Shown here: one piece after another, positions 42,872 to 64,000 of the stretch
Position numbering within the stretch: the stretch's first letter is position 1
Layout of the letters: each line of letters begins with the position of its first letter
Origin: Candidatus Iainarchaeum sp.
Lineage (GTDB): Archaea > B1Sed10-29 > WALL01
Length of the DNA: 64,000 nucleotides
Assembly (NCBI GenBank): GCA_023129115.1
Contig: JAGMCR010000002.1
Coordinates: forward strand, 32,001 to 96,000
Reading direction: 5' to 3'
Position numbers and translations under genes: made by a program
Notes under the pieces: generated by a model
Databases searched by the model: none
What the model saw: only the letters and a program-made list of their open reading frames with translations
What the model was told of the DNA's origin: nothing

Positions 42872-42944
42872 GCCTCGGTAGCTCAGCCGGTAGAGCGGCA
42901 GTCTCGTAAACTGCAGGTCGGGGGTTCAATTCCCTCCCGAGGCT
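42872..42944 (+). tRNA. tRNA-Thr(CGT)
   Basis: Acceptor GCCTCGG/CCGAGGC, anticodon arm GCAGT-CTCGTAA-ACTGC, T arm GGGGG-TTCAATT-CCCTC, discriminator U; TTTAAATA upstream. Confidence 0.97.
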
Positions 42945-43060
42945 CTGACCCTACGGTAGTAGAGCCTGCACCATAAAATTGTTGATGATTGCCTATAACG
43001 CTTTCGTTGCAGCCCTAACTCCTTGAATTTCCTAGGAAATCCGCGGAAACTGGAGGACGC

Positions 43061-43279
43061 TTAATAGAATTCTTCTTTTGGCTTTCCAGTCTGCTTGATT
43101 ATGTGCTTTATCACAAAAACAGTTATGGTTGTGTGGTGCGGCACTCACGTTGTCAACACTTTTTTCTTTGACACTTGTTTCTTGTAAGTGATGTGCTTGC
43201 TGGACCTGGCTTTCTTGAGGCCATTGTCCTTGAGTATGCCCTCGACCTTACGCCTTGACAGCTGGCGAAGCCCTGCCAT
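43061..43279 (-). pseudogene. hicA: HicA-family toxin pseudogene
   Basis: Read by hand: MAGLRQLSRRKVEGILKDNG...SSKHITY...VLTT*VPHH...IIKQTG; in-frame TGA at 43145-43147. Confidence 0.75.
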
Positions 43280-43345
43280 GATGGGCAACCTCCGGCAAAG
43301 AAATGGGTATGCTACTCAATGAAACAGAAACCGACATCATTGTTT

Positions 43346-43525
43346 TTAGGGTGTGGGCTTGGGTGTGTCCGGGTCTTTCATATACTCGTTAACCAATTCC
43401 GCCATATTTTCCTTTACCTCTTTCTCGGTTTTTCCTTGTGTGGCCACGTCAAGAACAGGGCAAGAAGCCACAAACCACTTATCCTCTTTAGTAACGATTA
43501 TTGGTAAAGGAATAGCTTGTTTCAC
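43346..43525 (-). pseudogene. hicB: HicB-family antitoxin, probably truncated by frameshift
   Basis: Read by hand: IVTKEDKWFVASCPVLDVATQGKTEKEVKENMAELV; stops at 59 aa while another frame continues to overlap the hicA start. Confidence 0.75.
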
Positions 43526-43596
43526 TGAAAATCACCCTCTGAAATAGGTTATCAAACCCGCGCTATTTAAAAGTATCCGCAAAAAAGAGGTGCTCC

Positions 43597-44250
43597 TTGG
43601 TCCTGCCAAAGTTATTAAAGAACCCCACACAATATTCTAGCGTGCCTGGAGATATCATCCCTGAAAAGAAGACTAAGACACAAAAAGCGATTAGGGCACT
43701 CTTTGCTTTTGGTGAGAAGCAGCGGGAGCTACCTTACGTTAAGACCAGCCGTCCAGGACACTTGGTTGCGCGGAGTATGAAGCGTGCTAACGAGCTGGTT
43801 GAACAAGCAACAACTATTTGGGAAGAAACGAAGGACAAGGAACAAAGCGGCAGGATTGGGCCGTGGGGAAGTGGGTTTAAGATAATTTACCCACAGGATT
43901 CTCGCCTTAGGGGTGAAGTGTTCCATGAGCTGAAGAGGATAACCCGCGACCTGAAAAGGGCGAGTTCGCAAAAACTTTCTGAAGAAGAACTGCAGGAGGA
44001 AGCTGCGCGGCTCAAGAATTTTTATACTCGGGGAATTCCATCCGGTCGCACGCCCGAAGCCGAGGCGAAGGCAGACGCTATGCTCACAGACGAAGAGAAA
44101 GCAATCCTAGGGGAACTCGGTTTGGACGAGGACAAGTACAACGAGCACGTCCAACACCTCGCCAGCGCCCTGGAGTCTTCACACGAGGACCTTTACGAGC
44201 TGATGGTACACCTTATAAAAGAAGGAAAAGAGGTAAAGCTGCTCAAATAA
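43597..44250 (+). CDS. Hypothetical protein
   Basis: 217-aa ORF with TTTAAA box and GAGGTG RBS upstream. Confidence 0.65.
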   Translation: MVLPKLLKNPTQYSSVPGDIIPEKKTKTQKAIRALFAFGEKQRELPYVKTSRPGHLVARSMKRANELVEQATTIWEETKDKEQSGRIGPWGSGFKIIYPQDSRLRGEVFHELKRITRDLKRASSQKLSEEELQEEAARLKNFYTRGIPSGRTPEAEAKADAMLTDEEKAILGELGLDEDKYNEHVQHLASALESSHEDLYELMVHLIKEGKEVKLLK

Positions 44251-44328
44251 CTCTTTTATGTGCAGACCCTCAATATAGTGTAAAAGCCCCACCCCGTTTT
44301 TTAAAGAATCCCGCACAACATTCTAACA

Positions 44329-44796
44329 ATGGCAAGAACACCTCAATGGATCAAAAACCTGGGCGGTCACGCAGGCGAGTTATACGTCGCGGCTGAACTA
44401 TCTAAACGTGGAATACCCAATGCATTGCTCCCCGAGAACTTTTCTGACGATGATATTTTGATTGCGCAGAAAGATGGAAGTGAAATTGGCTATATCCAAG
44501 TAAAGTCCTGTCACCCAAATCGTTCCGACTCCTTCATTCTTCGCTACACTGAAGAAGAGTGGACAAAAGCAAAAAGTAACGAGTACGTGGTTTTAGTGTA
44601 CTTGGGGACTCCCGAAGAAAACGAATCCCCACGTTATTGGATAACAACAAAGAAAAAAATGGGAAAAGCATGTGTTGAACACGGGGCACACGGAACCAAA
44701 AACTGGGAACGCCGCTTTTGGATGAAGACTATGGAATCAGACTACAAAAAATGGGAGAATAATTGGGGGCTCTTTAAGAAGTACCTTCCTAAGTGA
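44329..44796 (+). CDS. PD-(D/E)XK-fold nuclease-like protein
   Basis: AGELYVAAEL...DDILI...IQVKS. Confidence 0.8.
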   Translation: MARTPQWIKNLGGHAGELYVAAELSKRGIPNALLPENFSDDDILIAQKDGSEIGYIQVKSCHPNRSDSFILRYTEEEWTKAKSNEYVVLVYLGTPEENESPRYWITTKKKMGKACVEHGAHGTKNWERRFWMKTMESDYKKWENNWGLFKKYLPK

Positions 44797-44820
44797 TTAA
44801 AAAAAAATGGAGAGATTCGT

Positions 44821-45453
44821 TTGAAGAAAATTAGTGTATCTGAACTGACTTTTGCGCAAATACGCGCAGCCTCCAAAGAGTTCAGAAAGCGCGAGGAGAG
44901 GGATTCAATATACAAAATCACTACAAAGCTCGTGAACGAGGCATGGGCCAAGAAAGGCAAGGGATTCACTCTCGCCGATGCCATTAGCGTGCTACTACTC
45001 GTTTGGAACCAGGGGTTCTACCGCTACGGAAGACTCAACTTCACTAAGTTCGATAAAGCTATCAAGAAGAACAAGCCACTACTGGCAAAGTTTAGGAAGC
45101 GAAAAATCGCAAGCTTCACAGCAAAGGATGAAACAACAATCAAGAAGCTATTCAACGATTTACTTGAGGCCACGTCCATCAAAACGAGGAAACAGAAGAA
45201 AAAGATGGTCAGCCCAGTCAGCGTTGCCAAAGCACTCCACATGATGGCTCCCAGATTCTTCCCGTTATGGGACGGAGCCATCGCCGTTGGATGGGGCTGT
45301 CGATTCAACCGGGACAACGCTGCTGACAAGTACCTGAAGTTCATGAGGCAAAACAAGGAACTGATGGGAAAATACAGTGGCCGCGGGCTAACCTTAAAAA
45401 TGATTGATGAATGTAGTTACGCAATATACACCGCGGGATGGTATCCACGATAG
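44821..45453 (+). CDS. Hypothetical basic protein, possibly nucleic-acid modifying
   Basis: LLVWN...SVAKALHMMAPRFFPLWD motif; its 3' end is duplicated at 52323. Confidence 0.6.
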   Translation: MKKISVSELTFAQIRAASKEFRKREERDSIYKITTKLVNEAWAKKGKGFTLADAISVLLLVWNQGFYRYGRLNFTKFDKAIKKNKPLLAKFRKRKIASFTAKDETTIKKLFNDLLEATSIKTRKQKKKMVSPVSVAKALHMMAPRFFPLWDGAIAVGWGCRFNRDNAADKYLKFMRQNKELMGKYSGRGLTLKMIDECSYAIYTAGWYPR

Positions 45454-45611
45454 ACAGGTCATTTCCTAGGAACTTCCGCGGAAATGAGGTGTGTGAGGGG
45501 CAAAAACCCGTGTAGGCTCTACAGCCGTACGACTTGTTCCCTCCCGAGGCTCTGTATCTCTGGTGCCAGAGCGCAAGCTAAATCATTCTTTTTTTTGTGC
45601 ACTTGCCTTTG

Positions 45612-46208
45612 CTAAAGCGACTTCGCGAACTTGTCCGAGGTGGTCATCTTTGCGTACAGCGGCAGTATGTCCATCATCGCGTCGTAGTTGCTGTCGGTGA
45701 AGCCGCTGGTCGCGTCCTTCAGAAGGGTCACGTTGTATCCCTTGTTGGCCGCGCGCTTAACAGTCGTTGCGATGACGTGCTCGGTGCACTGCCCGCTGAT
45801 ATATACGTGGTCGACTCCGGCCGAACGCAGTACTAAATCGAGGTCGGTTCCCTCGAAGCCGTCAGAGCCGTAGTTGATGACGATTACATCGTCTTTCTTG
45901 GGCTCGAGCTCCTTGATGACCTTGGCATCCCAGCTGCCCACCAAAGCTTTGTTCGCGTCTTTGGCTCCCTGCATGAGGGGGTAGTACTGGTTCTTGGGCA
46001 TTTCAGGATAGCCTGGTCTCCACGCGATGTTGACGAAGACGGTCAGCATCTTCTTCCTTCGGGCTGCGGAAAGCGCCTTCTTCGCCTTGGGTATTGACTT
46101 GTTCTTCTTGATTTGGGGGTACAGCATCTTGCCCCAAACGCCTTTGGGGTGGGCCACACCGTTTTGCCAGTGTAGCATTAGCAAAGCAGATTTTTTGACA
46201 TTAACCAT
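45612..46208 (-). CDS. Isochorismatase-family (cysteine hydrolase fold) protein
   Basis: GFEGTDLDLVLRSAGV, ISGQCTE, GYNVTLLKDATS. Confidence 0.88.
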   Translation of the reverse strand: MVNVKKSALLMLHWQNGVAHPKGVWGKMLYPQIKKNKSIPKAKKALSAARRKKMLTVFVNIAWRPGYPEMPKNQYYPLMQGAKDANKALVGSWDAKVIKELEPKKDDVIVINYGSDGFEGTDLDLVLRSAGVDHVYISGQCTEHVIATTVKRAANKGYNVTLLKDATSGFTDSNYDAMMDILPLYAKMTTSDKFAKSL

Positions 46209-46259
46209 GATAATTCACCGAAAGCAAACAAGCTTCCGTGCAATAAAAACGTTTCGGTT

Positions 46260-46284
46260 GGGGTTCAATTCCCTCCCGAGGCTC
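46260..46284 (+). repeat. Longest tRNA-Thr 3' copy (25 bp, att-like), directly upstream of the integrase
   Basis: GGGGTTCAATTCCCTCCCGAGGCTC identical to 42921-42945. Confidence 0.95.
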
Positions 46285-46359
46285 CATTACTGCGTCAAGG
46301 AGCCCCTGCTCAATTCCGCACCAGTCTATAAATAGTCCTTTGAGCAGAGCCTCGGAGGC

Positions 46360-47529
46360 ATGAGGACTGACCCTTACAACACCGGCACGAAGCTAGTGAA
46401 TTGCCTTGAGCGGGTTAGGCAATCGCTTGACCTATGTAAAGCCAACAAGCGGCTGATTCTTGAGTTCCACGCCGAGGCCGTTGCCCGTGGCTTGTCGGAA
46501 AAGCGGTGCCTTAAGTACGTGAGTACTCTCCGCAACCTCGGAACCCAACTTGGAAAGCCCTTTAACAAGGCGGACAAGCACGACATCATTCGCTTGCTCT
46601 CTTGGCTTGAGTCAACCGCGTACAAGGAGTGGACGAAGCACGACTACAAAGTCATTCTGAAATCGTTTTACAAGTGGCTGAACGGTGGAGAAGAGTATCC
46701 AAAGGTTGTTTCGTGGGTAAAAACAGGGATGAAGAACGGCAACCACATGCTGCCCGAGGAATTGCTGACCGAGGAAGACGTGCGTGCTTTAGTTGAAGCG
46801 TGTACGAACCCGCGCGACAAAGCTTTTGTCCTCACGTTGTACGAGAGTGGCTGCCGAATAAGCGAGCTGCTGACGTTGCAGGTAAAGAGCGTGAGGTTTG
46901 ACGAGCACGGCTCAATCTTGCGAGTGACTGGGAAGACCGGTGACAGGCGCGTGAGGGTGATTTCCGCGGCTCCGGCAATCGCGTTGTGGCTCGACAACCA
47001 CCCCACAAGGAAAGGGCACTTGTTTTGCTCCTTGGATGGGACGGGCATCAACTACTCGACCGCTAACGTGCTGTTAAGGAGGCTTGCTAAGAAGGCAGGC
47101 ATTACGAAGCGTGTTAATCCGCACGGTTTCCGCCACGCCCGGGCCACGTCGCTCGCGAACAAGCTCACAGAAGCCCAAATGAAGGAGTTCTTTGGTTGGG
47201 CTCAAAGTAGCGAGATGGCGGCTGTGTACGTCCACTTGTTGGGGCGGGACGTGGACGATGCCCTGCTAAGCATTTACGGCGTGAAGCCACCCGAGGACGC
47301 TCGCAAGGAGCGTTTCGTGCCTAGGGCTTGTCCCAGGTGCAAGGAGACTAATTCTCCTGCTAGTAAATACTGTTGCAGGTGTGGCAGTGCGCTCGACCTC
47401 GCAACAGCGCTAGAGGCTGATGACAAGCACAAGGAAGCCGATGCATTGATGAACGAGCTCATCAAAGACGACAGGATAAAAGCGCTTCTATTGGAGCGGT
47501 TGGTTGCCATCCAAGCAGAGAATCATTAA
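46360..47529 (+). CDS. Tyrosine recombinase/integrase with C-terminal Zn ribbon (SNJ2-like archaeal family)
   Basis: ESGCRISE (R), GKTG (K), HGFRH (HxxR), FGW, VYVH (Y), CPRC...CCRC; catalytic set intact. Confidence 0.95.
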   Translation: MRTDPYNTGTKLVNCLERVRQSLDLCKANKRLILEFHAEAVARGLSEKRCLKYVSTLRNLGTQLGKPFNKADKHDIIRLLSWLESTAYKEWTKHDYKVILKSFYKWLNGGEEYPKVVSWVKTGMKNGNHMLPEELLTEEDVRALVEACTNPRDKAFVLTLYESGCRISELLTLQVKSVRFDEHGSILRVTGKTGDRRVRVISAAPAIALWLDNHPTRKGHLFCSLDGTGINYSTANVLLRRLAKKAGITKRVNPHGFRHARATSLANKLTEAQMKEFFGWAQSSEMAAVYVHLLGRDVDDALLSIYGVKPPEDARKERFVPRACPRCKETNSPASKYCCRCGSALDLATALEADDKHKEADALMNELIKDDRIKALLLERLVAIQAENH

Positions 47530-47996
47530 CCTTTTCGTTTGAGGTTGTTGTATATATTGAGTGGTTCAGCGCTCAAATTCTCGCGTTCCTGGCCTTGGTT
47601 CAACTGATTTTTTAGGAATTCAATAGCTGCCAAGTAGCTCATCGGGAGCGCATCAGAAGTGTTTTCTCCCCCTGTTCAGGAATCCACATTACGAAAAAAT
47701 TCGGATTTGAGAATGTTGTATTCTCTCTTGTATTAATGGGGCAGTTTTCGGTGCGGATTCTAAGGCGTTGCTAGTGATTGACCATTGTGTAATTAGGATT
47801 CTAATTATTCAGAAAGTAGGGGTTGTGTGAAGCTCGGGGGTGAATACTGACCCTGATGAGGGTTCTGCATTACGAAAAAATTGGGATTCGGAAGTTGGCC
47901 TCCTTTTAGTGATAGAAAATGGATTTGGCCTTAGTTCACGTTTAAACATAGGTTTTTATTTGAGGACTGCTTTTTTGGCTAAGGAGCGGATTGCTG

Positions 47997-48665
47997 ATGA
48001 CTGATACTTTAGTTGATGTTTTGCTGATGCCGAACATTATGGCACTATGGGTTCCAATAATCATAGCGGCCGCCTTAGTAATCCTAATGGGATTGGTTGT
48101 CCGCCACAAAAAAGTTTCTATATCTAAGTCTAAAAAATCGCCAGATAACAAAAAAGTTGCTTTCAGATCACTTGTGATTGTTGCAGTACTATCGTTGGTA
48201 TTTTTCTTTGTTGAACCCCAGATAATAAAAGGTCTCTCCACACCACTTTTAACAATCCCATTTAGTGTTGTCCCCGCTCTTCTACTCGGATTATTTTACA
48301 CTGGACTTCAATACACTCCCATAGAAATCAAATCAGACAAGAAGAAAGCGACGCTAACAGTTGATTTTATTACTATTAATCTATGCGCACTCTTCGCATT
48401 CTTGACATTGTTTAACTTCTCTCCTTATTTCCCCGGCGCGTTCACTAGCACGAGCAACATAGCAATCATTTTCATAATTGCGTTGGTACAGACTTTTTTG
48501 TTCTCGCTGATTGTGTTCGCTTCGGAAAAAGTAAAATTCATCAGACTAAAAAATTTCCTTGGGATTCCAAATTGGCTGATATGTGTTATACTCTTTATCC
48601 TGCCTTGGTTGTTTTTGATGTATGAAAAAGCTATCCCAGTGGTGGGTGGCCTCAGGACCCTATAA
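47997..48665 (+). CDS. Multi-pass membrane protein
   Basis: About six hydrophobic helices; AT-rich DNA. Confidence 0.7.
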   Translation: MTDTLVDVLLMPNIMALWVPIIIAAALVILMGLVVRHKKVSISKSKKSPDNKKVAFRSLVIVAVLSLVFFFVEPQIIKGLSTPLLTIPFSVVPALLLGLFYTGLQYTPIEIKSDKKKATLTVDFITINLCALFAFLTLFNFSPYFPGAFTSTSNIAIIFIIALVQTFLFSLIVFASEKVKFIRLKNFLGIPNWLICVILFILPWLFLMYEKAIPVVGGLRTL

Positions 48666-48756
48666 TCAAAAATGCCTAAATCGGCATTTGTTTAAACGTT
48701 TGGACGATATGTATTTATTCTGCAAGCGCTTTTTGTTTGAGTCGGGGTGTTCTTCA

Positions 48757-51570
48757 ATGAAGCGAATGTTAGATGCATCTAAGGGCTCAGTTATAGTGGT
48801 GGTTTTTATCCTACTCTTAATTGTTGGGGTTTATGCGTTTGCTCCGTGTCCTGTTTCTCCACCAGTAAACGAAGGTGACCCACTGCCAATACCTTGCTTT
48901 GAAGAAGGTATGTGCATGGGTGGTTGTTGCTGCTATGATGGTTATCTTCTTCTCGAAAGGAATACTACTGAAGAACAGCCCAGCGCGATTACAGGTATGA
49001 TGGTAGCAACCGCACCTTTAGAAGGCAATGCAATTGAGCCCCACAAAGTGGTTAGTTTGGTTGGTTTTGAAGGCTATGACAAGAATAGGGACAAGGTTGC
49101 GGATTCCATGCAGAACGGTGTTTACTTAGAGGGCGCTACAAAAGAACTATTCACTGTTGCTTTTGACCACAAACCAACAGAAGAAGACAAAAAACTGGTT
49201 AGAGATATGGGTGGGGAGGTTGTTTACGATTTCTCATTGATTTACGCTTTAACAGTTAGGATACAACCAACCAAAATAACTGAGTATGCAGCAGCCAATC
49301 CACATGTAGTTATCGTGAGTGACCCCCGTGTAACTAGATCACTGAAGATATACCGCACAGCAAAAGTAGTTCGTGTTCGACCTCTAGTTTGGGAAACCTA
49401 TGGCTACAATGGTAGCGGGGAAGTAGTCACAGTAATGGATAGTGGCGTAGATGACTCCCACGCAGATTTACAAGGCAAAATAAAAAACTGGATGGACTGC
49501 AATCCTGCAGGATGCACTACTATTGGTCAGACACTGCATGACAACGTGGGCCATGGAACGAGTATTGCGGGGATTATTGTGGGGTCTGGGACGCAGGTGG
49601 GTGGTTCTAGTGGAGTAGCCACAGTGAACATTATGATTCATAGCCGGTTTACGGGCGAAGGCGGAGAAGTATGGGGTGGCTATTTTTCAGTGGATACTGA
49701 TGATAACACCCATTCCATTGACGGAACCCTTAATTGGGAGGCGGCTGACGGGCAGGACAATTACACAATAAAAGTAACCAACTCTACAGGGCTACCAAAC
49801 GGTGTTATTGGGGACGAAACTTCCGATTCAGACCCCTTAACCTTAACCACCAACTCATTCACAGAAACCAGTGAAATCCAGTACAAGTTTTACGTTAGCG
49901 CAGAGAGTGGCAATGCACATAACAGCACTGATGAAGCCTATTTCGCGCAAATGAGTACACCTATTGAATCGGTGGGGGATAGTTATAACCTCATGAGGGG
50001 ACTGGCACCAGGTAGCGAGCTTGTTTCCGTGAAAGTTGTGCCAGATGATAATGACATAGCTCATTTATGGACTATGAATAATGCCTATGATTGGATTGGG
50101 TCTAATTCTGAATCAGATGGCGTTAAAGTGGTTTCCATTAGTTTGGGTGGGACAACCGCTGACCCTATTGAATCAAAAGTCATTAGTAACACGATAGACA
50201 AAGGGGTTCTGCCCGTTGCAGCAACAGGTAATGATAACGGTGTTATCGACTACCCTGCTAGGTATCCTGAAGTGCTTGCTGTGGGGGCGATTGACAGCGA
50301 TGGAGACGTGGCGGATTACAGTAATTACGGGAACTCAAGTGAAGGCTCTGAAAAATGGCCCGATGTTGTTGCTCCCGGTGGGTCAAGCTGGTTCACTTAT
50401 GAAAAATACCCTGTTTTAACACTCGACACAAACGACGCTGAGTGTGTGACGAACACAGGCCTAACTACATGCGAAAGTTTCTCTGAAGAATACACTAATG
50501 ACTCCATCTATGCGTACGGTACTTCCATGGCTGTCCCCCACGTATCCGCGATAGCTGCCTTGATTGCTGAGGCGAAGGGGAGTTGGACTTACAACTCTTC
50601 TACTGACCCGTTGTGGGTAAAAATGGTTATTTCGATGACGGCTTGGGAGACCAACGAAACCAACCGTGGTTCTAAAGACATCTATGAAGGCTATGGAGTA
50701 GTCGCTGCCGACGCGGCAATCGAAGCGGTTATCTTCAACCACACGCTTGGGGACATTGAGTCAGATACTTTTGGCTCGGGATTGACTGACAAGAAGGTGT
50801 GGGCCCGCGAAGTTTCGCCGGGAGACAAGGAAATTGATTTCACGCTGGTGGTGCCAAGCGGCGCGGACTACGACCTCTACCTTTACAACAATACTCCTGA
50901 CCAGTACGGCCAGCCACAGATACTGGACAATTCGACAACTGCTGCGACCGGCGGCACAGAAAGCATTACCTACAACTTTTCGGCGAGTCAGGAAGCGTAT
51001 TTGGTGGTGAAGTGGGTCAGCGGTAACGGAGCATTTACTTTGTCTAGTGTGGAAGACAAGGACAAAATGAGTTTGATTCAGGGTTGGAACCAGTTTTCGT
51101 TCCCGAAGCTTCCGGCGAACAAGACTGTGGCCAACGTGTTCTCTTCAATTAGTGGTAGTTATGACCGGATAGATGATTACATCGCTAACAACAAGTCGTG
51201 GCGGATTTACGACGTAGCTGCAATTGGCTATTCCATGACGTTAAGCAACATTGAGGGGGGCAGGTCTTATCGCATTCATATGAACCAGGCCGACACAATT
51301 GAGTTCAGCGGCACGGACGTGGCGCCAATCAATATCTCGCTTTATGAGGGCTGGAATTGGCTCGCTTGGCCAGGCGAGACGGAGGCAATCGCCAGTGCGT
51401 TGAGCTCAATCGACGGGAGCTACAACAGAATAGATGAACTCTACGCTGGGGAGTGGGAAATTTATGATAGCTCCATCCCCGATGAGTACGACCAATCCCT
51501 GGACTACATGAAAAGAGGCAGAGGGTACGTAATTCTCATGAACTCTAACGACACACTCGAGGTGAATTAG
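48757..51570 (+). CDS. Secreted S8 (subtilisin-like) serine protease with PPC-like and C-terminal repeat domains
   Basis: VMDSGVD, HGTSIAG, ATGN, GTSMAVPHV; N-terminal TM helix; two L..GWN repeats. Confidence 0.93.
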   Translation: MKRMLDASKGSVIVVVFILLLIVGVYAFAPCPVSPPVNEGDPLPIPCFEEGMCMGGCCCYDGYLLLERNTTEEQPSAITGMMVATAPLEGNAIEPHKVVSLVGFEGYDKNRDKVADSMQNGVYLEGATKELFTVAFDHKPTEEDKKLVRDMGGEVVYDFSLIYALTVRIQPTKITEYAAANPHVVIVSDPRVTRSLKIYRTAKVVRVRPLVWETYGYNGSGEVVTVMDSGVDDSHADLQGKIKNWMDCNPAGCTTIGQTLHDNVGHGTSIAGIIVGSGTQVGGSSGVATVNIMIHSRFTGEGGEVWGGYFSVDTDDNTHSIDGTLNWEAADGQDNYTIKVTNSTGLPNGVIGDETSDSDPLTLTTNSFTETSEIQYKFYVSAESGNAHNSTDEAYFAQMSTPIESVGDSYNLMRGLAPGSELVSVKVVPDDNDIAHLWTMNNAYDWIGSNSESDGVKVVSISLGGTTADPIESKVISNTIDKGVLPVAATGNDNGVIDYPARYPEVLAVGAIDSDGDVADYSNYGNSSEGSEKWPDVVAPGGSSWFTYEKYPVLTLDTNDAECVTNTGLTTCESFSEEYTNDSIYAYGTSMAVPHVSAIAALIAEAKGSWTYNSSTDPLWVKMVISMTAWETNETNRGSKDIYEGYGVVAADAAIEAVIFNHTLGDIESDTFGSGLTDKKVWAREVSPGDKEIDFTLVVPSGADYDLYLYNNTPDQYGQPQILDNSTTAATGGTESITYNFSASQEAYLVVKWVSGNGAFTLSSVEDKDKMSLIQGWNQFSFPKLPANKTVANVFSSISGSYDRIDDYIANNKSWRIYDVAAIGYSMTLSNIEGGRSYRIHMNQADTIEFSGTDVAPINISLYEGWNWLAWPGETEAIASALSSIDGSYNRIDELYAGEWEIYDSSIPDEYDQSLDYMKRGRGYVILMNSNDTLEVN

Positions 51571-51690
51571 AGGGGGATACTTGACCTGGTCAAGCTGTCC
51601 TCCCGGGGCTCTGACCCTACGGTAGTAGAGCCTGCACCAAACTATTTATAGAACTTTGAGCAGAAGCCCTTGCGATGGGCAGGATAAACC

Positions 51691-52260
51691 TCATTCAAAA
51701 TGGTGTTTATGCTTTTCGAGTTTTTTCATGCGTTTCTTGTTTAGGTGAATTGTTTCTTTGGTTGCGCGGCTTTGGCGCTCGACTTCGAACGCGGTTATTC
51801 CAAGGTCGTGGGCCTCACACGCTGTTTTGATTGCACTGGCTGCTTGGACTATGTCTTCTCTTCGTGTTGACGGGTTTTGTTTTTTGTCTTCATTAAGTAT
51901 ATCAATTGCGAGGTCAATTGTTTTGTTTGGCAGCCCTAACCTCTTGCCTTGTTTTTGGATGATTTCTTGGGGAGTTGGAGTAGCTATGCCCGTAGCCTTG
52001 CGGAAGTCCTCGATGTCTTCTAGGCTTAGATTAATGGAGTTATCGGCGGCTCTGAAGTTGTACCTGCCAATTTCCATCCCCTGGTTTTGGCCCGCAACCC
52101 AACTTATTAAGCTCGCTTTTTTCACTGGCTCCGCATTGTACGCAATAACCTCTTTTTTCTTCCTGAGCCTCTCGACTTCTTTTACGAGTGCATCTTCTGC
52201 CTCGCCGGGAAAAACACGCAGCCGCCTTACTTTTTCCAAGATTTGGTCCATTTTAGACAT
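51691..52260 (-). CDS. Protein with a single TFB/TFIIB-like cyclin repeat
   Basis: PQEII...RLGLP...AIDIL...AASAI..AC......T..EV......TKETI resembles the second TFB repeat; no Zn ribbon. Confidence 0.55.
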   Translation of the reverse strand: MSKMDQILEKVRRLRVFPGEAEDALVKEVERLRKKKEVIAYNAEPVKKASLISWVAGQNQGMEIGRYNFRAADNSINLSLEDIEDFRKATGIATPTPQEIIQKQGKRLGLPNKTIDLAIDILNEDKKQNPSTRREDIVQAASAIKTACEAHDLGITAFEVERQSRATKETIHLNKKRMKKLEKHKHHFE

Positions 52261-52322
52261 AACAACAAATGACTCAGTTCTAAAATAAAAACCTTTTTAT
52301 CCCTCTTAGAGTTATGTGCAAA

Positions 52323-52495
52323 GCCGTGGGCTAACCTTAAAAATGGTTGATGAGTGTAGTTACGCAGTATACACCGCGGGATGGTATCCATGATAGACAG
52401 GTCATTTCCTAGGAAGTTCCGCGGAAATGAGGTGTGTGAGGGGCAAAAAGCGGTGCAGGCTCTATAGCCGTACGAGCTGTTCCCTCCCGAGGCTC
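52323..52495 (+). repeat. 173-bp duplicate of 45380-45552 (ORF tail, right end and core)
   Basis: Ungapped alignment with scattered substitutions. Confidence 0.95.
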
Positions 52496-52649
52496 AGCGT
52501 CCTGGGGGGCGCAGCCCCCCACGAAGCCCATGACGTTGACACAAGTCAACGTCCAGTCCACGGGAAGAGTCCCCTCAGTAATACTGTACTAGCTGCTGCC
52601 GGGCGGCCTTGCGCCGCCCTCGTCTAACGTGCCGCCTGAGTTTCAGGCG
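52496..52649 (+). repeat. Structured non-coding element, full copy (ORF-less cassette)
   Basis: Hairpins GGGGGC-GCA-GCCCCC, GACGTTGAC-ACAA-GTCAACGTC, GGGCGGC-CTTGC-GCCGCCC and CGCCTGA-GTT-TCAGGCG, between two cores. Confidence 0.9.
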
Positions 52650-52661
52650 CTCCCGAGGCTC

Positions 52662-52831
52662 AGCGTCCTGGGGGGCGCAGCCCCCCACTACCCCGGGAAG
52701 CGCCCCCCCAGGTGAGTGGGTAAGAGCTCGCTTCCGCTCGCGGTTTTTGTCTCTGGGAATCGCAGATTCCCAAGCCTAACGTGCTGTACCGTGAATCCCA
52801 ACGGATTTGCGGTTGTCCTGAGTTTCAGGCG
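52662..52831 (+). repeat. Structured non-coding element, variant copy
   Basis: Same AGCGTCCTGGGGGGCGCAGCCCCCC start, CTAACGTGC motif and CCTGAGTTTCAGGCG end; different internal hairpins. Confidence 0.88.
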
Positions 52832-53101
52832 CTCCCGAGGCTCTGACCCTACGGTAGCAGAGCCCGCTTCACCCCAAGCATGAGGCCGGACTTGCGCATA
52901 AGCTTCCTAGGGGTTTGTGGGGTTTGGGCCAATAAATTTATCAGGTTGTGGCATTCCTCGCTGAAGTATTGTCCCGCTGTCACTAAAAAACCCGTCCATT
53001 CCCTACAATAACGCTTAAAATATTGCCGTGGGGCGCATTCAGTCACGTTTATAAACTATAACATGTTAGATATATCGGTACCGATATTAAAAGGTTTTGT
53101 T

Positions 53102-53599
53102 ATGAACTTGTTTGCTAGGGGCTTGCTGAAAATTTATGTCTTGTACATGGCCAAACAGGGTTCCATTTCAGGCAGTGATGTTGCCAAGAGCATAAGCGCT
53201 GCCACAGACGGGCGGTGGAAGCCGAGCTTTGGCTCGATTTACCCGCTGCTGGGGAGGTTTGAGGAAGATGGCCTGCTGTGCCAGGAGGCTAGGAAGGGAA
53301 AGCAGGTCTTTTACTCACTCACCAAGAAGGGTGTGAAAGAGTTCGAGAGGCAGAGGGAAAAATACATTGCCGAGTACGAGGACAACCTCGGGACGCTGTT
53401 CCCCCTGGTCTTCCAGCTGGCGCAGTTCGAGGCCGACAAAGAGCTGCAAGACGCCGTCACGAACCTGAACCAAGTGTTCGCGAAATACAAGAAATACTTG
53501 TTCAACCTGGAGCTAAACGAAAAAGTGGAGAAAAGAAAGCGCATAATCAAGGACTTGTCCGCCACCCTTTCGGACCACATGAGCAAGCTGGAGAAGTGA
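53102..53599 (+). CDS. PadR-family transcriptional regulator
   Basis: WKPSFGSIYPLL...KQVFYSLTKKG. Confidence 0.9.
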   Translation: MNLFARGLLKIYVLYMAKQGSISGSDVAKSISAATDGRWKPSFGSIYPLLGRFEEDGLLCQEARKGKQVFYSLTKKGVKEFERQREKYIAEYEDNLGTLFPLVFQLAQFEADKELQDAVTNLNQVFAKYKKYLFNLELNEKVEKRKRIIKDLSATLSDHMSKLEK

Positions 53600-53603
53600 T
53601 GTT

Positions 53604-54926
53604 ATGGAAAAATACGACGCAATTGTTGTGGGGTGTGGCATAAGCGGGCTGCTCGCGGGCCTTGCGCTTGCCAAGGAAGGAAAGAGTGTGCTAATGCTCG
53701 AGAAGGAAGACAAAGTTGGTGGCGCGTGCAGGTCTTACGACGTTGACGGCTTCGTGGTCGACACCGGGCCGCATGTGATTACTGGGCGGGGGAATGGGCC
53801 AACCCAATTGCTGATAGACAAGTATTTTGACGTGGTGCCGAAGTTCATTGAGAGCAGAAAATATTTCCTGCGGTTTGACGGCAAGTTATACGCTTTCCCT
53901 TGGACGATTCCGGCTTGGCTATCGTTCCCACCGTTCTCAGTCGAAGACAGGCTCATCATTGTCCAGGTGATGTTCAAGTTGTTGGCAGACTATGCCTCTG
54001 GCAAAGGCTTGGGGGATAAAGTGGTGTCTGATTACACGGCGGGCCATGAGCTCTCGGGAAGGGCGCTGCAGTTCATTGATTGCATGTGCCTGTTTTTGAC
54101 GGGCGTTTGCATGGAGGAAACGCCCGTGAGCCGAATCCTTTCCGGGGGAAGGAGCAAAAACAAGACAAAAGCGGAAAAAATAAAAGAGATTTTGGTTGAA
54201 AACGGGAAGACCCATTACTATCCGCGTGGGGGGATCCAAACTATTGTTAACTCTGTATTGCAGTCCCTCCCGAAGAACGCCGGGATTCACAAGAGCGAAG
54301 AAGCAACCAAAATCGTGGTCAGTGGCGGGCGTGTTTCTGGTGTCGCCACGGACAAAGGCGAGTACGCCACGAAGGTAGTGGTTTACGCTGGACCGAACAA
54401 GCTCCTTCCCGGCTTGGTGGAACTGCCCCAAGAGTACATCCAAAAATTCAGGGGCTTGAAGCAAGCGAGGACGCTGACGCTGTGGCTCGGGCTAAATAAA
54501 AAATACTTCGCAGAAGTTGGGACAGAGCTTTGGACCGAAACAAAAAAGCCTTGCTGGGCCGTCCCAACATCCAATTTTGATTCTGCACTCGCCCCGACGG
54601 GGAAGCACTTGGTGGGCTTCGGCTTCGTGCTCGCGGAAGATGAGCAGGTGACCGACGACAACATTGACGACTATGTCAAAGTAGTCGAGGAAGTGTTCCC
54701 GGGCATAAGGGAACACATCGAGATGACCCATTACCAAGTGCTGGTTGCCGAGCAGGCAGCCAACGCAAAAGACAATTTCTTCAGCGGGGTCAAGCTGCCG
54801 GTCGATGGGCTGTACGCGGTCGGCACTGACGTCGACAGGCGGAGCATGGGCGTGACGAGGGCCGCGTACTCCGTAGTCTCGTTGATTGAAGCCCTAAAAC
54901 AAGGCGGTTTTGTTACGAAGGTGTGA
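53604..54926 (+). CDS. Phytoene-dehydrogenase-family FAD oxidoreductase
   Basis: GCGISG, VGGAC, VDTGPH, YPRGGIQ, LAPTGKHL, GLYAVG. Confidence 0.88.
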   Translation: MEKYDAIVVGCGISGLLAGLALAKEGKSVLMLEKEDKVGGACRSYDVDGFVVDTGPHVITGRGNGPTQLLIDKYFDVVPKFIESRKYFLRFDGKLYAFPWTIPAWLSFPPFSVEDRLIIVQVMFKLLADYASGKGLGDKVVSDYTAGHELSGRALQFIDCMCLFLTGVCMEETPVSRILSGGRSKNKTKAEKIKEILVENGKTHYYPRGGIQTIVNSVLQSLPKNAGIHKSEEATKIVVSGGRVSGVATDKGEYATKVVVYAGPNKLLPGLVELPQEYIQKFRGLKQARTLTLWLGLNKKYFAEVGTELWTETKKPCWAVPTSNFDSALAPTGKHLVGFGFVLAEDEQVTDDNIDDYVKVVEEVFPGIREHIEMTHYQVLVAEQAANAKDNFFSGVKLPVDGLYAVGTDVDRRSMGVTRAAYSVVSLIEALKQGGFVTKV

Positions 54927-54930
54927 AAAA

Positions 54931-56028
54931 ATGAAGTACAAAAAAATAGTTTTCCCGCGGGACGGTGCCGCCCATGACAACGTTATTGAGTGGTGGTACT
55001 TTAACGGGCACCTGAAGGACGGGAATGGCAATGGGTATGCCTTCATGGACTGCCTGTTCAAGGCAAAGCCCAAAGAAGTGAAACTTCCTTTTTTGAAAAA
55101 GATTCCACTCAAAAACGCTTATTTCGCCCACTCCCTTTTGTCTGACATCAAGGACAACGTGTTTTATTCAAGCGTGCAGCCCCTGAGCATACTCTCGAGG
55201 GACAGCTTTTCAAAGCCCTTGTTTTTCGTGAATTACTCCCACCCCTCTTTGGGCGGCTACCTGAATTACGAAATCGAGGAGATTGACGGGTTCAAGTATA
55301 GAATCAAGTCCGAGTTCTTTGACTTGACCTTGAGCTCGACCAAGAAGCCGCTGCTTGAGGGCGGGCGCGGGTTCATTGACTTGAATTCAAAGCAAACGTT
55401 TTACTACTCGCTGACAAACCTCGAGACAGAGGGATACGTCACTGTCAACGGCAAGCGAATCAAGGTAAAAGGCAAGTCCTGGATGGACCACCAGTGGGCC
55501 GACGTCCCGTACTCGAAGGACAAGTGGAGCTGGTTTTCAATCCAATTGGACAACAACACGGAAATGGTTTGCTTTGAGTATGGCGACAAGAAAAAGAAGA
55601 CTTATCTCGCGAGCATTTCGTACGCGAACGGAAGGGTCGCCCACGCCAGTGACTTATCACTAACCCCATTAGGCCAGGTATGGGAGAGCAAGAGAACTGG
55701 CGCCAAGTATCCCCTTTCATGGAGGATTCAAGTCCCGTCAAAAAGAATTGACCTCGTGGTGAGCCCCTTAATGAAAGAACAGGAAATAATTTTTGGGCCA
55801 ATCAACTACTGGGAGGGGCCGTTAAAAGTAACGGGAAAAGTGAACAACAAAAAAGTGGCTGGAAAAGGATTTTCAGAGCTTGTCGGCTACCCGACAACAA
55901 AGTCTTTTGTTGAGTTTTATGAGCCAGAACTAAGGAAAATCGAGAAAATAGTTAAAAGAGACTTAAGCGAATGGGTGGGTCATACGATTAGTGGAAAGCC
56001 GGGGTTTGCCGCGGATCGCAGGAAGTGA
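54931..56028 (+). CDS. CrtC/AttH lipocalin-like hydratase family protein
   Basis: H...IEWWYFNGHL, YYSLT, WMDHQW, WSWFSIQL, YWEG. Confidence 0.85.
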   Translation: MKYKKIVFPRDGAAHDNVIEWWYFNGHLKDGNGNGYAFMDCLFKAKPKEVKLPFLKKIPLKNAYFAHSLLSDIKDNVFYSSVQPLSILSRDSFSKPLFFVNYSHPSLGGYLNYEIEEIDGFKYRIKSEFFDLTLSSTKKPLLEGGRGFIDLNSKQTFYYSLTNLETEGYVTVNGKRIKVKGKSWMDHQWADVPYSKDKWSWFSIQLDNNTEMVCFEYGDKKKKTYLASISYANGRVAHASDLSLTPLGQVWESKRTGAKYPLSWRIQVPSKRIDLVVSPLMKEQEIIFGPINYWEGPLKVTGKVNNKKVAGKGFSELVGYPTTKSFVEFYEPELRKIEKIVKRDLSEWVGHTISGKPGFAADRRK

Positions 56029-56034
56029 GGTTGT

Positions 56035-56868
56035 TTGGGCTTTGGTGGTTTCTTGCTTCACTTGCGGCCGCTGTCGTGGCCACTTGTCGCACTGCAAGTC
56101 TTGACGGGGTTCGTGCTCGCCGGCGGCAACACTGTCTCTCTTGAGGTCTTGTTAGGTTTCTTTGTCATCGTTGTCTGTATGAACGGGGGAACACTGGCGT
56201 TCAACTCTTACTTCGACAGGGACGGTGGAAATGTGGGGTGGCTGGACAACCCACCCAAAACAACTAAGCAAACATATTACTTGTCGCTCGCGCTGATGGT
56301 ATTTGGTGTGCTCGCCGCCTTGCTGGTGTCCCATGAATTTTTCTATTTGGCTTCCGCATCTTTCGTTGTTAGCGTTGCTTATTCACATCCTTGGTTCAGG
56401 CTCAAGTCGGTGCCACTGGCAGACGCCATTTGTAGTGGCGTGGGTTACGGGGTGCTCATGTTTCTTGGGGGTTGGGTACTCGCGTCACCAGTCTTGACTG
56501 CCAAGGCCGGGGTCGTGTGCGTGGGAATGTTCCTGGCGTTCATGGCTGGGGTTCCATTGACCCAAATATATCAAATGCGTGAAGACAAAAAGAGGGGTGA
56601 TAGGACCACTGCATTGGCCTTGGGACCGGACAAATCAAAGTGGATGTTTTACTTCTTTGGCACGCTTTCTGTAGCCGTGTTGTTGTTTGCTGTTATGGAG
56701 GGGTTCTTGGGGAAACTTGCGCTACTGGCGGGCGTGCCTTTATTCTGGCTGGCGTTACAAGTACGGAACATCAAATCATTCAAGCACAAGCAAAAAGTTT
56801 ATGAGGCATACGTCGTGGTTGTTGTTGTGGATGTGGTTATCATTCTTTCAGAACTCGTTCCAGTGTAA
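56035..56868 (+). CDS. UbiA-family prenyltransferase
   Basis: LRP, FNSYFDRD, YSHPWFRLK, EDKKRGDRT. Confidence 0.88.
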   Translation: MGFGGFLLHLRPLSWPLVALQVLTGFVLAGGNTVSLEVLLGFFVIVVCMNGGTLAFNSYFDRDGGNVGWLDNPPKTTKQTYYLSLALMVFGVLAALLVSHEFFYLASASFVVSVAYSHPWFRLKSVPLADAICSGVGYGVLMFLGGWVLASPVLTAKAGVVCVGMFLAFMAGVPLTQIYQMREDKKRGDRTTALALGPDKSKWMFYFFGTLSVAVLLFAVMEGFLGKLALLAGVPLFWLALQVRNIKSFKHKQKVYEAYVVVVVVDVVIILSELVPV

Positions 56869-57002
56869 CACACCCCCTTTCCGCGGAAGCTTCCCCGGAA
56901 ATGACTTGGGTGTGGCTGATTTTGGGCGCAGGCTCTAGAGCCATACGAGCTGTTCTCCCCCGAGCTCTTTTATACTTCTTTTGACTAAAATTGTTTACTC
57001 TT

Positions 57003-58058
57003 ATGCATACACAAGAGCTTGTCACACGGCTTGAGGATGCGGAGAAAGCCGTTTCTGGGTACGGGGGGCAAAGGCTGTTGCTAATCAGCCAGTACTACGG
57101 CGCCCAAATGGATTTCGTCGATAGGATAGAGGCGGGCGTTGAGAGGGGCAAGAGGCTGATGAGTGCGGACATTGTTGTCAGAAGAAAGCATGCCATGAGC
57201 CAGCAGAAGATTTTCAAGAGGATGGCGCAGTTTTTCAAGCAAGTCGATGGCTCATACAAAAAAGGGGACATCAAGGACAAGGAGGGCCGTGTGTTCGCCC
57301 GCGCCTATGACAAGGCGGTCCACGGCCATTTTGCCAAGGTACGGGAGATTCTTTCAGAGGTAGAGGGCATGGCCGTGGTATACACGGAATTTGTTGGGCT
57401 TGAGGAAGAAGCAAAAAGGCAAAAGAAAAAGTTGGGGAAAAGGAAGGCGTCCATCCATGCATTGCTCGAGGAAGCGGGCTCGGTAAAGCCGCTTGATGGC
57501 GATTACGTGAAAAAGCATGGGGAAGTGCTTCGGAGCCTGGAGAAAGCCAAGGGGCTTAGGGCGGAGTACATACAAAAAATTCGTGGCAAGAGTGTTATGG
57601 AGTACGTGGCAATGCTGAAAAACAAGGATTTGGTCAAGGTGGGCTTTCCAGGCGCGGACCCTGCTGACATCACCAAATTCTTGAATGCTTATCCAGAGCT
57701 CTCAAAGGCAACGCCGGAGAAACTGCTTGAATATCGTTCCTGGACAGACGGGAAGCTAAAGCACACAATCCCGGAGACCAAGAGGTTCAGGAGCATGATG
57801 CAGGAGTATGGCTCTTGGCTGGAACGCCTTGAGCACCTTGAGTCATTGGGGTTCATGGTTGTTAGGAACGTGGAGGACGCGAAGAGGCTCGCGCCATTAT
57901 TCAGGGGGACCGAGGCCGGTGGCGTGCTGTCAAGCCTTAGCGGGCTTGGGGATTACTGGATGGCGCCCCCCAAAGGCGCACCAGTCAGGGACACACCAAA
58001 GCTAAAAAAAGAGCTTTCCGAGATAGGCAGGGAACTGGCGCTTCTGGAAGGCGTTTAG
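57003..58058 (+). CDS. Hypothetical helical protein (single-gene cassette)
   Basis: ORF fills the interval between cores at 56954 and 58066. Confidence 0.7.
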   Translation: MHTQELVTRLEDAEKAVSGYGGQRLLLISQYYGAQMDFVDRIEAGVERGKRLMSADIVVRRKHAMSQQKIFKRMAQFFKQVDGSYKKGDIKDKEGRVFARAYDKAVHGHFAKVREILSEVEGMAVVYTEFVGLEEEAKRQKKKLGKRKASIHALLEEAGSVKPLDGDYVKKHGEVLRSLEKAKGLRAEYIQKIRGKSVMEYVAMLKNKDLVKVGFPGADPADITKFLNAYPELSKATPEKLLEYRSWTDGKLKHTIPETKRFRSMMQEYGSWLERLEHLESLGFMVVRNVEDAKRLAPLFRGTEAGGVLSSLSGLGDYWMAPPKGAPVRDTPKLKKELSEIGRELALLEGV

Positions 58059-58130
58059 GCCCAATCCCTCCCGGGGCTTTCCGGGGGAGGTGGGCAACGC
58101 AAAGCTTAAATATTAGAAATGCGTACTATA

Positions 58131-58237
58131 GGGCGCTGTAGGTTTGAGAGGTTGTGAACCGCAAGGCTTGCAACGAATTATGTCCCGAAAGTGGCATAAG
58201 GGCCGTGTAGAAAATAGCTCTTAAACCTGTAGCACTT
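58131..58237 (+). ncRNA. Putative structured small RNA (three-way junction)
   Basis: BRE/TATA-like CGCAAAGCTTAAATAT at 58098-58113; closing stem GCTGTAGGTTTGAGAG/CTCTTAAACCTGTAGC with G-U pairs; two hairpins capped by GCAA and GAAA; T-rich tract downstream. Confidence 0.65.
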
Positions 58238-58462
58238 CAGCGCTTTCTGTTGTTTCAACTGTGTATGGACCTTAGTTCTCACGCTTCATTTCCGCGGAAC
58301 TTCCTAGCCGCAGGATTTATAGCCGTACGAGCTGTTCCCTCCCGAGGCTCTCAGACCACGTCAAGGAGCCCCCGCTCAATTCCGCACCGGTTTACATGCC
58401 TGTTTATAAAGGTTTACGATATATCGTACACCTTTATATAATAGTTCAAACACCGATTAAGC

Positions 58463-59653: not shown

Positions 59654-59695
59654 AAAAATGCTCCTTGACGTGGCCAAGCCGCCCTCCCGGGGCTC

Positions 59696-59722
59696 AGCGT
59701 CCTGGGGGGCGCAGCCCCCCCA
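59696..59722 (+). repeat. 5' fragment of the structured element serving as the left end of the DNase cassette
   Basis: AGCGTCCTGGGGGGCGCAGCCCCCC directly after the core. Confidence 0.85.
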
Positions 59723-59776
59723 CTGGGCGGTTCGGCACGCGCGGGGTTTATTAACCTTCTTTTCGTTGGCTGTGCA

Positions 59777-60607: not shown

Positions 60608-60646
60608 TGGGCTCCAAGAAGTGAATCCCTCCCAAGGCTCCATCTC

Positions 60647-63945: not shown

Positions 63946-64000
63946 TAATGCACTGCCGCATTATAAACCTTCCCCAAGCTTTTCAACCGAACAAACCGCA

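Follow-up and report, generated by a model that had tools for sequence, protein, structure and literature searches.

How does a single integrase gene come to stand in a long row of small DNA units, all of them bounded by copies of one tRNA end? The question is raised by a stretch of 64,000 nt from the archaeon Candidatus Iainarchaeum sp. (G000:C12:32001-96000, hereafter the window), in which the gene for tRNA-Thr(CGT) is followed by a stack of 13-15 units. Little is known of how genes are taken up by DPANN archaea, whose genomes are very small and gene-dense; in this genome, the stack behind one tRNA gene accounts for about 2.3% of a 1.25-Mb assembly. The explanation favored here, to which we assign a probability of roughly 0.6, is tandem accretion by site-specific integration, involving one integrase-bearing element and integrase-less relatives that resemble cis-mobilizable elements (CIMEs).

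Positions without a prefix are window coordinates, whereas C12, C13, etc. denote contigs of assembly G000, which comprises 19 contigs, is 88.6% complete, and has a G+C content (GC) of 0.56. The locus was found in three sequencing runs of a single study, labelled as cold seep metagenome, of which the assembled contigs were examined.

Copies of the tRNA-Thr End and Extent of the Stack

The attachment target and the copies of its end lie on the same strand:

42872-42945, + strand: tRNA-Thr(CGT), the attachment target (ARAGORN; Rfam tRNA, 70.7 bits)
42933 (the tRNA itself), 45540, 46272, 51599, 52483, 52649, 52831, 58338, 59683, 60628, 60842, and 62960, + strand: retained core copies

The core consists of the last 13 nt of the tRNA gene, CCTCCCGAGGCTC, and occurs 14 times in the window with two mismatches at most, against 1.97 occurrences expected; none of 100 shuffles reached 14. 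Two of these matches were set aside, namely one at 33465, which does not belong to the stack, and one at 58067, which was rejected as an attachment (att) copy because it is a two-mismatch, terminator-like hairpin. The 12 retained copies extend from 42933 to 62972, and most of them are perfect or carry one mismatch. Beyond the window, the series goes on at C12:99202 and C12:103056, which brings the good copies to 14 overall, followed by a degenerate site at C12:104098. The stack thereby covers about 28 kb, reaching G000:C12:103068, with units of 0.15-5.5 kb. Exact 12-mers of the core number 10 in G000 and six in G004, a genome of a sister genus in the same family, and arrays of this core occur in only these two of the 31 genomes of the class.

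Twelve units other than the integrase unit are bounded by the same core, and the assembly holds no second match to the tyrosine recombinase family PF00589, as expected of an array built by accretion around one enzyme. The integrase unit had been described beforehand as lying mid-array; it is in fact the third of the 13-15 units, because the stack continues outside the window.

The Integrase Unit

Unit c, the integrase unit, occupies 46285-51598 (5.3 kb), with core copies at 46272 and 51599 on either side. Its features, and the copy of the tRNA end that precedes it, are as follows:

46260-46284, + strand: 25 nt identical to the tRNA 3' end (T-arm and acceptor strand), with the core at 46272-46284 inside them
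46285-46322, + strand: left arm R3, including an inverted repeat of the 3' part of the core; common to the ATPase unit (from 58351) and the unit at C12:99215
46327-46359, + strand: putative integrase promoter, predicted from sequence, with a TATA-like box at 46327-46334
46347-46359, + strand: inverted copy of the core abutting the integrase ATG
46360-47529, + strand: integrase gene int, 389 aa, with its ATG at 46360, 75 bp past the 25-nt copy (PF00589, 5.2e-24)
47659-47900, + strand: conserved non-coding module of about 180 nt directly 3' of int, in two tandem copies with a period of 181
47991-48665, + strand: cargo gene for a 224-aa hydrophobic membrane protein matching no family, GC 0.388
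48622-51570, + strand: cargo gene for a 982-aa secreted subtilase (Peptidase_S8) with extra C-terminal domains (PF00082, 4.7e-44)
51580-51611, + strand: right arm LB (palindrome 51580-51598) and core 51599-51611, with A changed to G at core position 8

The unit is therefore bounded by direct repeats of a tRNA 3' end and carries int 75 bp from the first of them, as befits a tRNA-targeting integrative element. Its left flank (46269-46328) is 85% identical over 60 nt to that ahead of the ATPase gene (58335-58394), and its LB arm recurs at 59664 and 62941; a metagenome scan for this arm plus core gave 0 matches. The cargo is richer in A+T than the integrase gene (GC 0.388 for the membrane protein gene and 0.475 for the protease gene, against 0.542 for int and 0.56 for the genome), and no replication, virion, or transfer family was matched in the unit with PHROG, Pfam, or NCBIfam. 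The preliminary description, made by reading the DNA without database searches, is upheld in all of these respects, i.e., an intact tyrosine recombinase with a CPRC/CCRC ribbon (C324-P-R-C327 and C338-C-R-C341) 75 bp after a 25-bp tRNA copy, a left flank nearly the same as that of the ATPase cassette, a family-B right end, AT-richer cargo, and the lack of replication and virion genes. Its statement that the integrase lies behind the longest att copy needs qualification, since the exact 25-nt copy does lie 75 bp upstream but forms the right end of the preceding, isochorismatase-bearing unit rather than one of the integrase unit's own ends.

Similarly, this integrase had been taken for the only one, whereas it is the only intact one, accounting for the single PF00589 match in the genome. 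A second copy of int, located outside the window in a family-B unit (C12:101464-101526), comprises the first 21 codons or so at 95% identity, after which the sequence breaks off; it retains the promoter and the inverted core (C12:101412-101526). This truncated copy constitutes direct evidence that cargo has replaced an integrase.

An element of another genus, whose integrase is 84% identical, shares with unit c the int gene, about 200 bp after int, and the LB arm, and carries unrelated cargo. It is likewise closed by the LB arm with the position-8 core variant, and its post-int module is single. This module could encode a small RNA, act as an origin, or offer accessory binding sites; no open reading frame (ORF) of at least 60 aa is found on the + strand between 47530 and 47990. 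The inverted core before the ATG is present in the truncated int copy and in the 84%-identical homologue as well, although it was discarded as a family-wide feature, being absent in 12 of 12 more distant scorable loci.

Three Families of Unit Ends

The arms that flank the core copies define three families of units (denoted by letters; those other than unit c are described in the last section):

Family A: left arm R1 (after the core) and right arm LA (ahead of the following core); units a, d, and g
Family B: left arm R3 and right arm LB (short palindrome); units c, h, and m
Family C: left arm R2 (G6/C6 hairpin) and right arm LC (hairpin); units e, f, and j

The pairing of R1 with LA, R3 with LB, and R2 with LC is what integrated circles would leave. 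Overall, the integrase element and three further units make up family B, and family A numbers four to five. The pairing is broken in unit k, which runs from an R1-like arm to LB, in unit i, without a recognizable right arm, and in unit b, whose right end is the 25-nt tRNA copy, while unit l has an LA-like right end and a left arm that was not recognized. The last 6-7 nt of the core recur in inverted orientation 13-14 nt further on, at the start of R1, R3, and the left arm of unit b, unlike R2, which has no such inverted repeat. Moreover, a small hairpin is placed 4-13 nt ahead of the core in every right arm.

The repeat starts at the same base in 4/4 copies of family A and in 5/5 copies of family B, the latter including a copy in another genus (L012:7107), and the cargo of these units is unrelated. 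The variants of the core go with the arm to their left rather than with the target: position 8 is G alongside LB (51599, 59683, and L012:7107) and position 1 is G alongside LC (52649 and 52831). A T as the last base of the core is confined to copies whose right flank is native or armless (62960, C12:103056, and L012:7107). The fixed boundary and the arm-linked variants suggest that the element brings the core with it, and the variants together with the last-base pattern point to an exchange within the last few bases of the core. A crossover in the last 5 nt or so would fit a tyrosine recombinase with a short overlap at the tRNA gene's extreme 3' end.

Over their last 173 nt, units a and d match with 93% identity, and the family-A left arms hold a 31-nt stretch with 81% identity to the integrase promoter region. 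Degenerate cores or arms occur at 56928-56968, 60628, and C12:104098. The units that carry genes have GC values of 0.41-0.57 and look foreign, only unit i not being below the genome value.

The Integrase and Its Family

The int product belongs to the tyrosine recombinase superfamily (PF00589, 85.4 bits vs. a cut-off of 27.1 bits), and consists of a weakly matched SAM-like N-terminal domain, the Phage_integrase catalytic domain, a C-terminal four-Cys zinc ribbon, also reflected in a weak double-zinc-ribbon match in Pfam, and a terminal helix. The residues R166, K192, H255, R258, W280, and Y290 are invariant in all 17 aligned members of the family, as are the ribbon residues C324, C327, C338, and C341. 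A protein database search that scored 8000 matches yielded 2062 relatives at E <= 0.001; the best 120 of these have lengths of 365-433 aa and identities of 47-84%, many with the zinc ribbon PF13240, and a typical listed relative has about 395 aa and an identity of about 50%. Micrarchaeota, Burarchaeum, and Diapherotrites are source names among the matches listed.

The best solved structures are those of XerA (PDB 4a8e, E 7.9e-14; 5hxy, 1.1e-13), with IntI4 far weaker (2e-07). The best viral matches are Geoglobus acetivorans pleomorphic virus 1 (39% identity) and ThalV2 (36%), covering 81-82% of the query with E-values of 9e-66 and 7e-65; a Methanomicrobiales tailed virus integrase is also among the closest, and no Natrinema record appears among the leading organism names listed for 66 virus matches. 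The closest plasmid matches are haloarchaeal (36-41%), and eight IMG/VR contigs contain relatives at 31-42%. To judge by its sequence, the integrase is a member of a large uncharacterized archaeal Xer-like/zinc-ribbon family, which serves cryptic elements, plasmids, and some viruses that target tRNA 3' ends. A literature search found no description of a zinc-ribbon family of archaeal tyrosine integrases, and the words "zinc" and "DPANN" are absent from a 2021 review.

The integrase occurs in 12 of 41 related genomes (E <= 1e-10), and PF00589 in two of the five genomes of the same family. This patchy occurrence indicates the integrase of a mobile element rather than a housekeeping Xer enzyme. 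Identity with XerA was accordingly rejected, both on this ground, as it is not a conserved single-copy host gene, and on its score (131.1 bits vs. the 220-bit equivalog cut-off of NF040815). Indeed, PF00589 has no match in three of the five family genomes (G002, G003, and G004, 84-98% complete), so the lineage appears to lack XerA. An IntI identity was dismissed with 46.8 bits against the cut-off of 265 for TIGR02249, a model that captures the IntI-specific insertion. The enzyme had also been called SNJ2-like in the preliminary description, an assignment that fails on the architecture outlined for SNJ2 in PMC5861418, because the core lies upstream of int, 75 bp before the ATG, and int is followed by neither Orf2/Orf3 nor any ORF of at least 60 aa.

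Loci of the Homologues

A tRNA gene lies directly upstream of the integrase gene on the same strand in 7/38 genome loci (L014, L026, L034, L035, L036, L043, and L047), two of which (L034 and L036) have a single distal repeat about 10 kb away in the classical attL/attR layout. A T-loop-like motif was sought in the 300 nt upstream of 59 genome and metagenome loci with at least 320 nt on either side, and was found in 14/59 in forward and 8/59 in reverse orientation, compared with 103/2013 and 95/2013 background windows. This enrichment of the family downstream of tRNA 3' ends (14/59 against a background of about 5%), together with the intact enzyme, goes some way to support the view that unit c is the autonomous member of the stack.

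Arrays with three copies of a tRNA-tail-like 11-mer occur at L013 and L019, and at least three copies also at L121, L098, and L135 (L109 being doubtful), among 35 loci of at least 8 kb. The expectation that homologues also neighbor multi-repeat arrays is thus borne out only on a small scale, with nothing near 14 copies among the loci examined. An association of the homologues with single attL/attR pairs only had been named in advance as a finding that would speak against this explanation, and it is not what is observed. The other such finding, namely similar arrays in genomes that lack the enzyme, did emerge in G004.

In this genome, the tail of tRNA-Leu(CAG) carries the same core as tRNA-Thr of G000. 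A cassette at this tRNA-Leu(CAG) is 82.7% identical over 712 nt to G000 C13:142766-143475, and an AbiEi/AbiEii cassette is 78% identical over 1324 nt to part of unit l. The C13 counterpart (G000:C13:142766-143619, - strand) is a single cassette of about 830 bp with small ORFs on the opposite strand and a copy of the tRNA-Thr core at each end. The left copy is a 24-nt tRNA-like fragment without a tRNA gene, followed by an R1 arm.

Two-Hairpin Elements and a Target-Copying Route

Family C differs in kind, as it consists of a non-coding element of 75-330 nt that opens with a G6/C6 hairpin and closes with one of 5-7-bp stem. It has 17 matches in G000, seven in a congener without PF00589, and none in 29 other genomes of the class. 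Its sites include:

Window 52496-52830 and 60641-60841
G000:C4:6970-7221, C2:19478-19760, and C13:81929-82236
C5:68795-68955, C12:114640-114800, and C4:39200-39303

A copy of a tRNA gene's own last 12 nt is found within 700 nt downstream of 10/38 tRNA genes and upstream of 1/38, and in nearly all cases the same hairpin stands before the downstream copy. The targets comprise Glu, Gly, Val, Arg, and Leu-like tRNA genes and an antisense tRNA-Ser, where one element lies antisense at the 5' end; the copies behind the elements reproduce the last 12-19 nt of the local tRNA. In addition, an RHH/RelE-like toxin-antitoxin cassette with pieces of the hairpin element is located just past the stop of a protein gene (G000:C1:62065-62870, - strand). 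The locally matched repeats, together with the flanks of this cassette, indicate that the genome also has a target-copying route of insertion. Units e, f, and j are better explained by this route than by integrase action, and the genus-specific family C units probably move differently from the integrase elements.

Casposon, retroelement, and HUH-transposon origins were set aside, as Cas1 (PF01867), RVT_1, and Y1_Tnp/HUH transposase had no match in the 88.6%-complete assembly, which does not prove their absence. Four TnpB-like genes score above the PF07282 cut-off (C13:134192-134389, C3:79611-79808, C3:10561-10764, and C3:102282-102485).

How the Stack May Have Grown

In tandem accretion, a circular element bearing right arm, core, and left arm would recombine at the core of the tRNA gene or at any earlier copy of it, and integration would regenerate the core on both sides, so that the next element could enter. 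Family A and B units, with their own core and fixed boundary, look like integrase-less relatives of integrase elements, and are candidates for movement in trans by the resident integrase. Family C would be a separate mini-element that duplicates whatever gene end receives the insertion. The integrase may be active at present. The idea that the other units are derivatives in which cargo took the place of the integrase is directly supported for the family-B unit with truncated int, promoter, and inverted core, yet it does not extend to the small non-coding family C units, which represent a genus-wide two-hairpin repeat found at many other tRNA genes.

Several observations weigh against tandem accretion. 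Family C elements stand behind other tRNA genes with repeats that match each local tRNA, and a 12-nt repeat unrelated to tRNA, present in three copies, flanks the toxin-antitoxin cassette of C1, whose counterpart in G004 has the tRNA core on its flanks; the target-copying route could thus account for some of the core copies of the stack. G004, although 98% complete, has six core copies in two arrays and no tyrosine recombinase, meaning that arrays either outlive the enzyme or do not need it. Among the homologue loci, 38/59 lack a tRNA-like motif next to int, most have at most one repeat pair, and the int promoter of the closest homologue is preceded by an ORF rather than an att copy. The predicted single-strand folding of the arms, calculated as DNA for five junctions, is not significant (z +0.16 in one and -0.7 to -2.0 in the others). 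Finally, there is no direct sign of excision or integration in the assembled contigs, which are broken at every core copy. In the probable source sample, these contigs terminate at each core copy and have a flat depth of about 19x across the units, and joints between them, e.g., 46419 to 51634 or 52831 to 60814, rest on short sides of 20-56 nt at repeated arms.

The target-copying route, if generalized, would turn all core copies into long target-site duplications and the integrase unit into a mere passenger. Insertion with long target duplication is reportedly a known phenomenon, and such a process would be in line with the excess of downstream over upstream tRNA-tail copies, the mini-element at many tRNA targets, the non-tRNA repeats around the C1 cassette, and the arrays or mini-elements of G004 and G002, which lack PF00589. 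It does not readily account for a repeat that begins at one fixed base in every family A and B unit, in two genera and with differing cargo, for core variants that follow the arm rather than the target, or for the independent tie of the integrase family to tRNA 3' ends; the assembly also offers no reverse transcriptase, Cas1, or HUH transposase for it, but only the four TnpB-like genes. We therefore regard it as unlikely for the stack as a whole. An origin as a fossil stack, whose decayed units each arrived with an integrase of their own and whose surviving enzyme serves only itself or is unused, without mobilization in trans, would agree with the truncated second int copy, the degenerate cores and arms, the hybrid ends of units k and i, the uniform depth, the presence of the same units in three samples, and the integrase-less arrays of G004. 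Nevertheless, the majority of cores have at most one mismatch, the ends of units a and d are still 93% identical over 173 nt, and homologous integrase-less cassettes occupy different core-flanked loci in two genera, which suggests movement after loss of the integrase. We regard a purely fossil origin as similarly unlikely.

A host platform akin to an integron, with a dedicated recombinase shuffling promoter-bearing cassettes at a tRNA-derived site, is brought to mind by the many small units of mostly one to few genes, the TATA-like boxes in left arms, the accessory and defense cargo (AbiE, PDC-S01, peptidases, and a prenyl-pigment-like operon), the cassettes common to different genera, and the sole recombinase of the genome. 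This we consider very improbable, as the integrase sits inside a unit with matched ends of its own and no fixed attI alongside, scores far below the integron-integrase cut-off, and is patchily distributed; furthermore, gene orientation is mixed (units b, d, and k on the minus strand), arrays of the tRNA-Thr core exist in only 2/31 class genomes, and an attC-like hairpin reading of the arms was dropped, given the non-significant junction folding. A bolder variant, for which the odds are long, is that the Xer-like zinc-ribbon integrase drives a tRNA-anchored exchange of self-promoted cassettes, with circles moving between tRNA genes that share the 13-nt tail. If so, it would be a functional archaeal counterpart of integrons, with a tRNA end in place of attC hairpins, and the hairpin upstream of every core would be a T-arm mimic read by shape, which could in turn explain the spread of the mini-element to a quarter of all tRNA genes.

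Comparison with Known Systems

Under tandem accretion, the closest precedents are bacterial. The CIMEs related to ICESt1-type islands of Streptococcus are described as having lost their integration genes while keeping both att sites, and as stacked beside an integrase element (PMC5704250). The likeness lies in units bounded by the target gene's end, the integrase-less ones beside an integrase-bearing element of the same specificity, whereas the present stack is archaeal (DPANN), packs 13-15 units of 0.15-5.5 kb into 28 kb with three arm families, and has no conjugation context. In Dehalococcoides, as presented in PMC3146451, the single-copy RNA gene ssrA is followed by more than a dozen 20-bp repeats of its 3' end, which mark off islands arranged in tandem; an integration module stands by the left repeat in only a part of these islands, and each repeat is preceded by a conserved short motif. 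Both systems, so far as that account goes, share RNA-gene-end repeats that delimit tandem units, only some of them with an integration gene. However, the Dehalococcoides enzyme is a CcrB-like serine recombinase, not a tyrosine recombinase, and the target there is tmRNA, with larger islands and a six-gene integration module in place of a single gene.

Among archaeal systems, SNJ2 of haloarchaeal pleolipoviruses is reported to have its att site by the 3' end of int, co-transcribed Orf2/Orf3 that are needed, and a 14-bp att core corresponding to the 3'-distal end of a tRNA gene (PMC5861418), and its family is given as confined to Halobacteria, with membership drawn at 30% identity over 60% of the length to the SNJ2 integrase (PMC8371274). 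Both enzymes are Xer-related archaeal tyrosine integrases with comparable cores of 14 bp and 13 nt, but here the core is upstream of int, and no ORF of at least 60 aa lies within 460 bp after it. XerA (4a8e and 5hxy) shares the catalytic fold and the SAM-like N domain; the present enzyme is about 100 aa longer, has a zinc ribbon, is patchily distributed, and is embedded in AT-rich foreign DNA. For a related Archaeoglobus provirus, one att site is described within a tRNA gene and the second next to the gene for the integrase (PMC10919331); according to this source, the Archaeoglobi pleomorphic viruses occur as proviruses that have virion genes and one att pair, unlike the integrase unit, which has neither virion nor replication genes. 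Integrons are similar in their ordered small gene units between recombination sites with one tyrosine recombinase nearby, yet differ in that the present locus has no IntI signature and no attI/attC, and has the integrase inside a unit, mixed orientation, and tRNA-derived sites. Tandem integration of two or three elements has been noted in archaea (PMC8371274).

Accretion stacking itself is a known way of collecting genes, and the tRNA-Thr stack is an unusually dense archaeal example. Its novel features are the host group, units that are both numerous and small, three arm families with matched ends, an uncharacterized family of zinc-ribbon integrases, and the admixture of target-duplicating hairpin elements. 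In a reduced genome, the stack carries AbiE, PDC-S01, secreted proteases, a prenyl-pigment-like operon, and a TFIIB-like factor. Moreover, the locus provides defined substrates for the biochemistry of this very large and unstudied family, with thousands of members and a conserved zinc ribbon, in the form of three arm families around one 13-nt core, as well as a natural test of the trans-mobilization of integrase-less cassettes in archaea.

Other Units of the Stack

The remaining units of the stack are the following:

42946-45539, + strand: unit a, family A, with three ORFs of unknown function, GC 0.463
45553-46271, - strand: unit b, with an isochorismatase-family gene at 45612-46208 (PF00857, 2.7e-31); its right end is the long tRNA-like copy
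51612-52482, - strand: unit d, family A, 0.87 kb, with the integrase-promoter-like stretch of its left arm at 51634-51664
51691-52260, - strand: lone gene of unit d, for a 189-aa single-repeat TFIIB-like protein (PF00382, 4.9e-05, at the cut-off)
52496-52830, + strand: units e (153 nt) and f (169 nt) of family C, both non-coding and with two hairpins, the core copy 52649 lying between them; no Rfam family matches
52844-58337, + strand: unit g, family A, with genes for PadR, an FAD amine-oxidase/desaturase-like protein, a CrtC-like hydratase, and a UbiA prenyltransferase, followed by DUF7118
58351-59695, + strand: unit h, family B, from R3 to LB plus core, without integrase; AAA_14/DUF4143 ATPase of the PADLOC candidate defense family PDC-S01 (4e-95)
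59696-62972, + strand: units i, j, and k; unit i with an EEP-family nuclease/phosphatase, unit j a 201-nt family-C element, and unit k with an S9 peptidase gene on the minus strand and LB plus the core at 62960 as its end
62973-64000, + strand: start of unit l, from which the stack continues outside the window

Rfam models applied to 42000-64000 at E <= 1 returned nothing but the tRNA, and neither the small units nor the post-int module match an RNA family. Unit g contains a degenerate LA arm and core (56928-56968), after which the DUF7118 protein gene follows, and thus probably represents two fused units. Its genes at 53063-56868 (PadR, desaturase-like, CrtC-like, and UbiA) resemble a carotenoid-modifying operon, here as mobile cargo in a DPANN genome.

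Beyond the window, the stack holds the AbiEi/AbiEii pair and the family-B unit with the truncated integrase. A gene for the C-terminal subunit of GMP synthase lies 3' of C12:103068, between the last good LB-plus-core and the degenerate core (C12:103069-104160, equivalent to L075:9069-10160), and hence a housekeeping-type gene may be located inside the oldest part of the stack. In the region of the degenerate core at C12:104098, an R3-like arm and a promoter-like stretch precede a TauE exporter gene.

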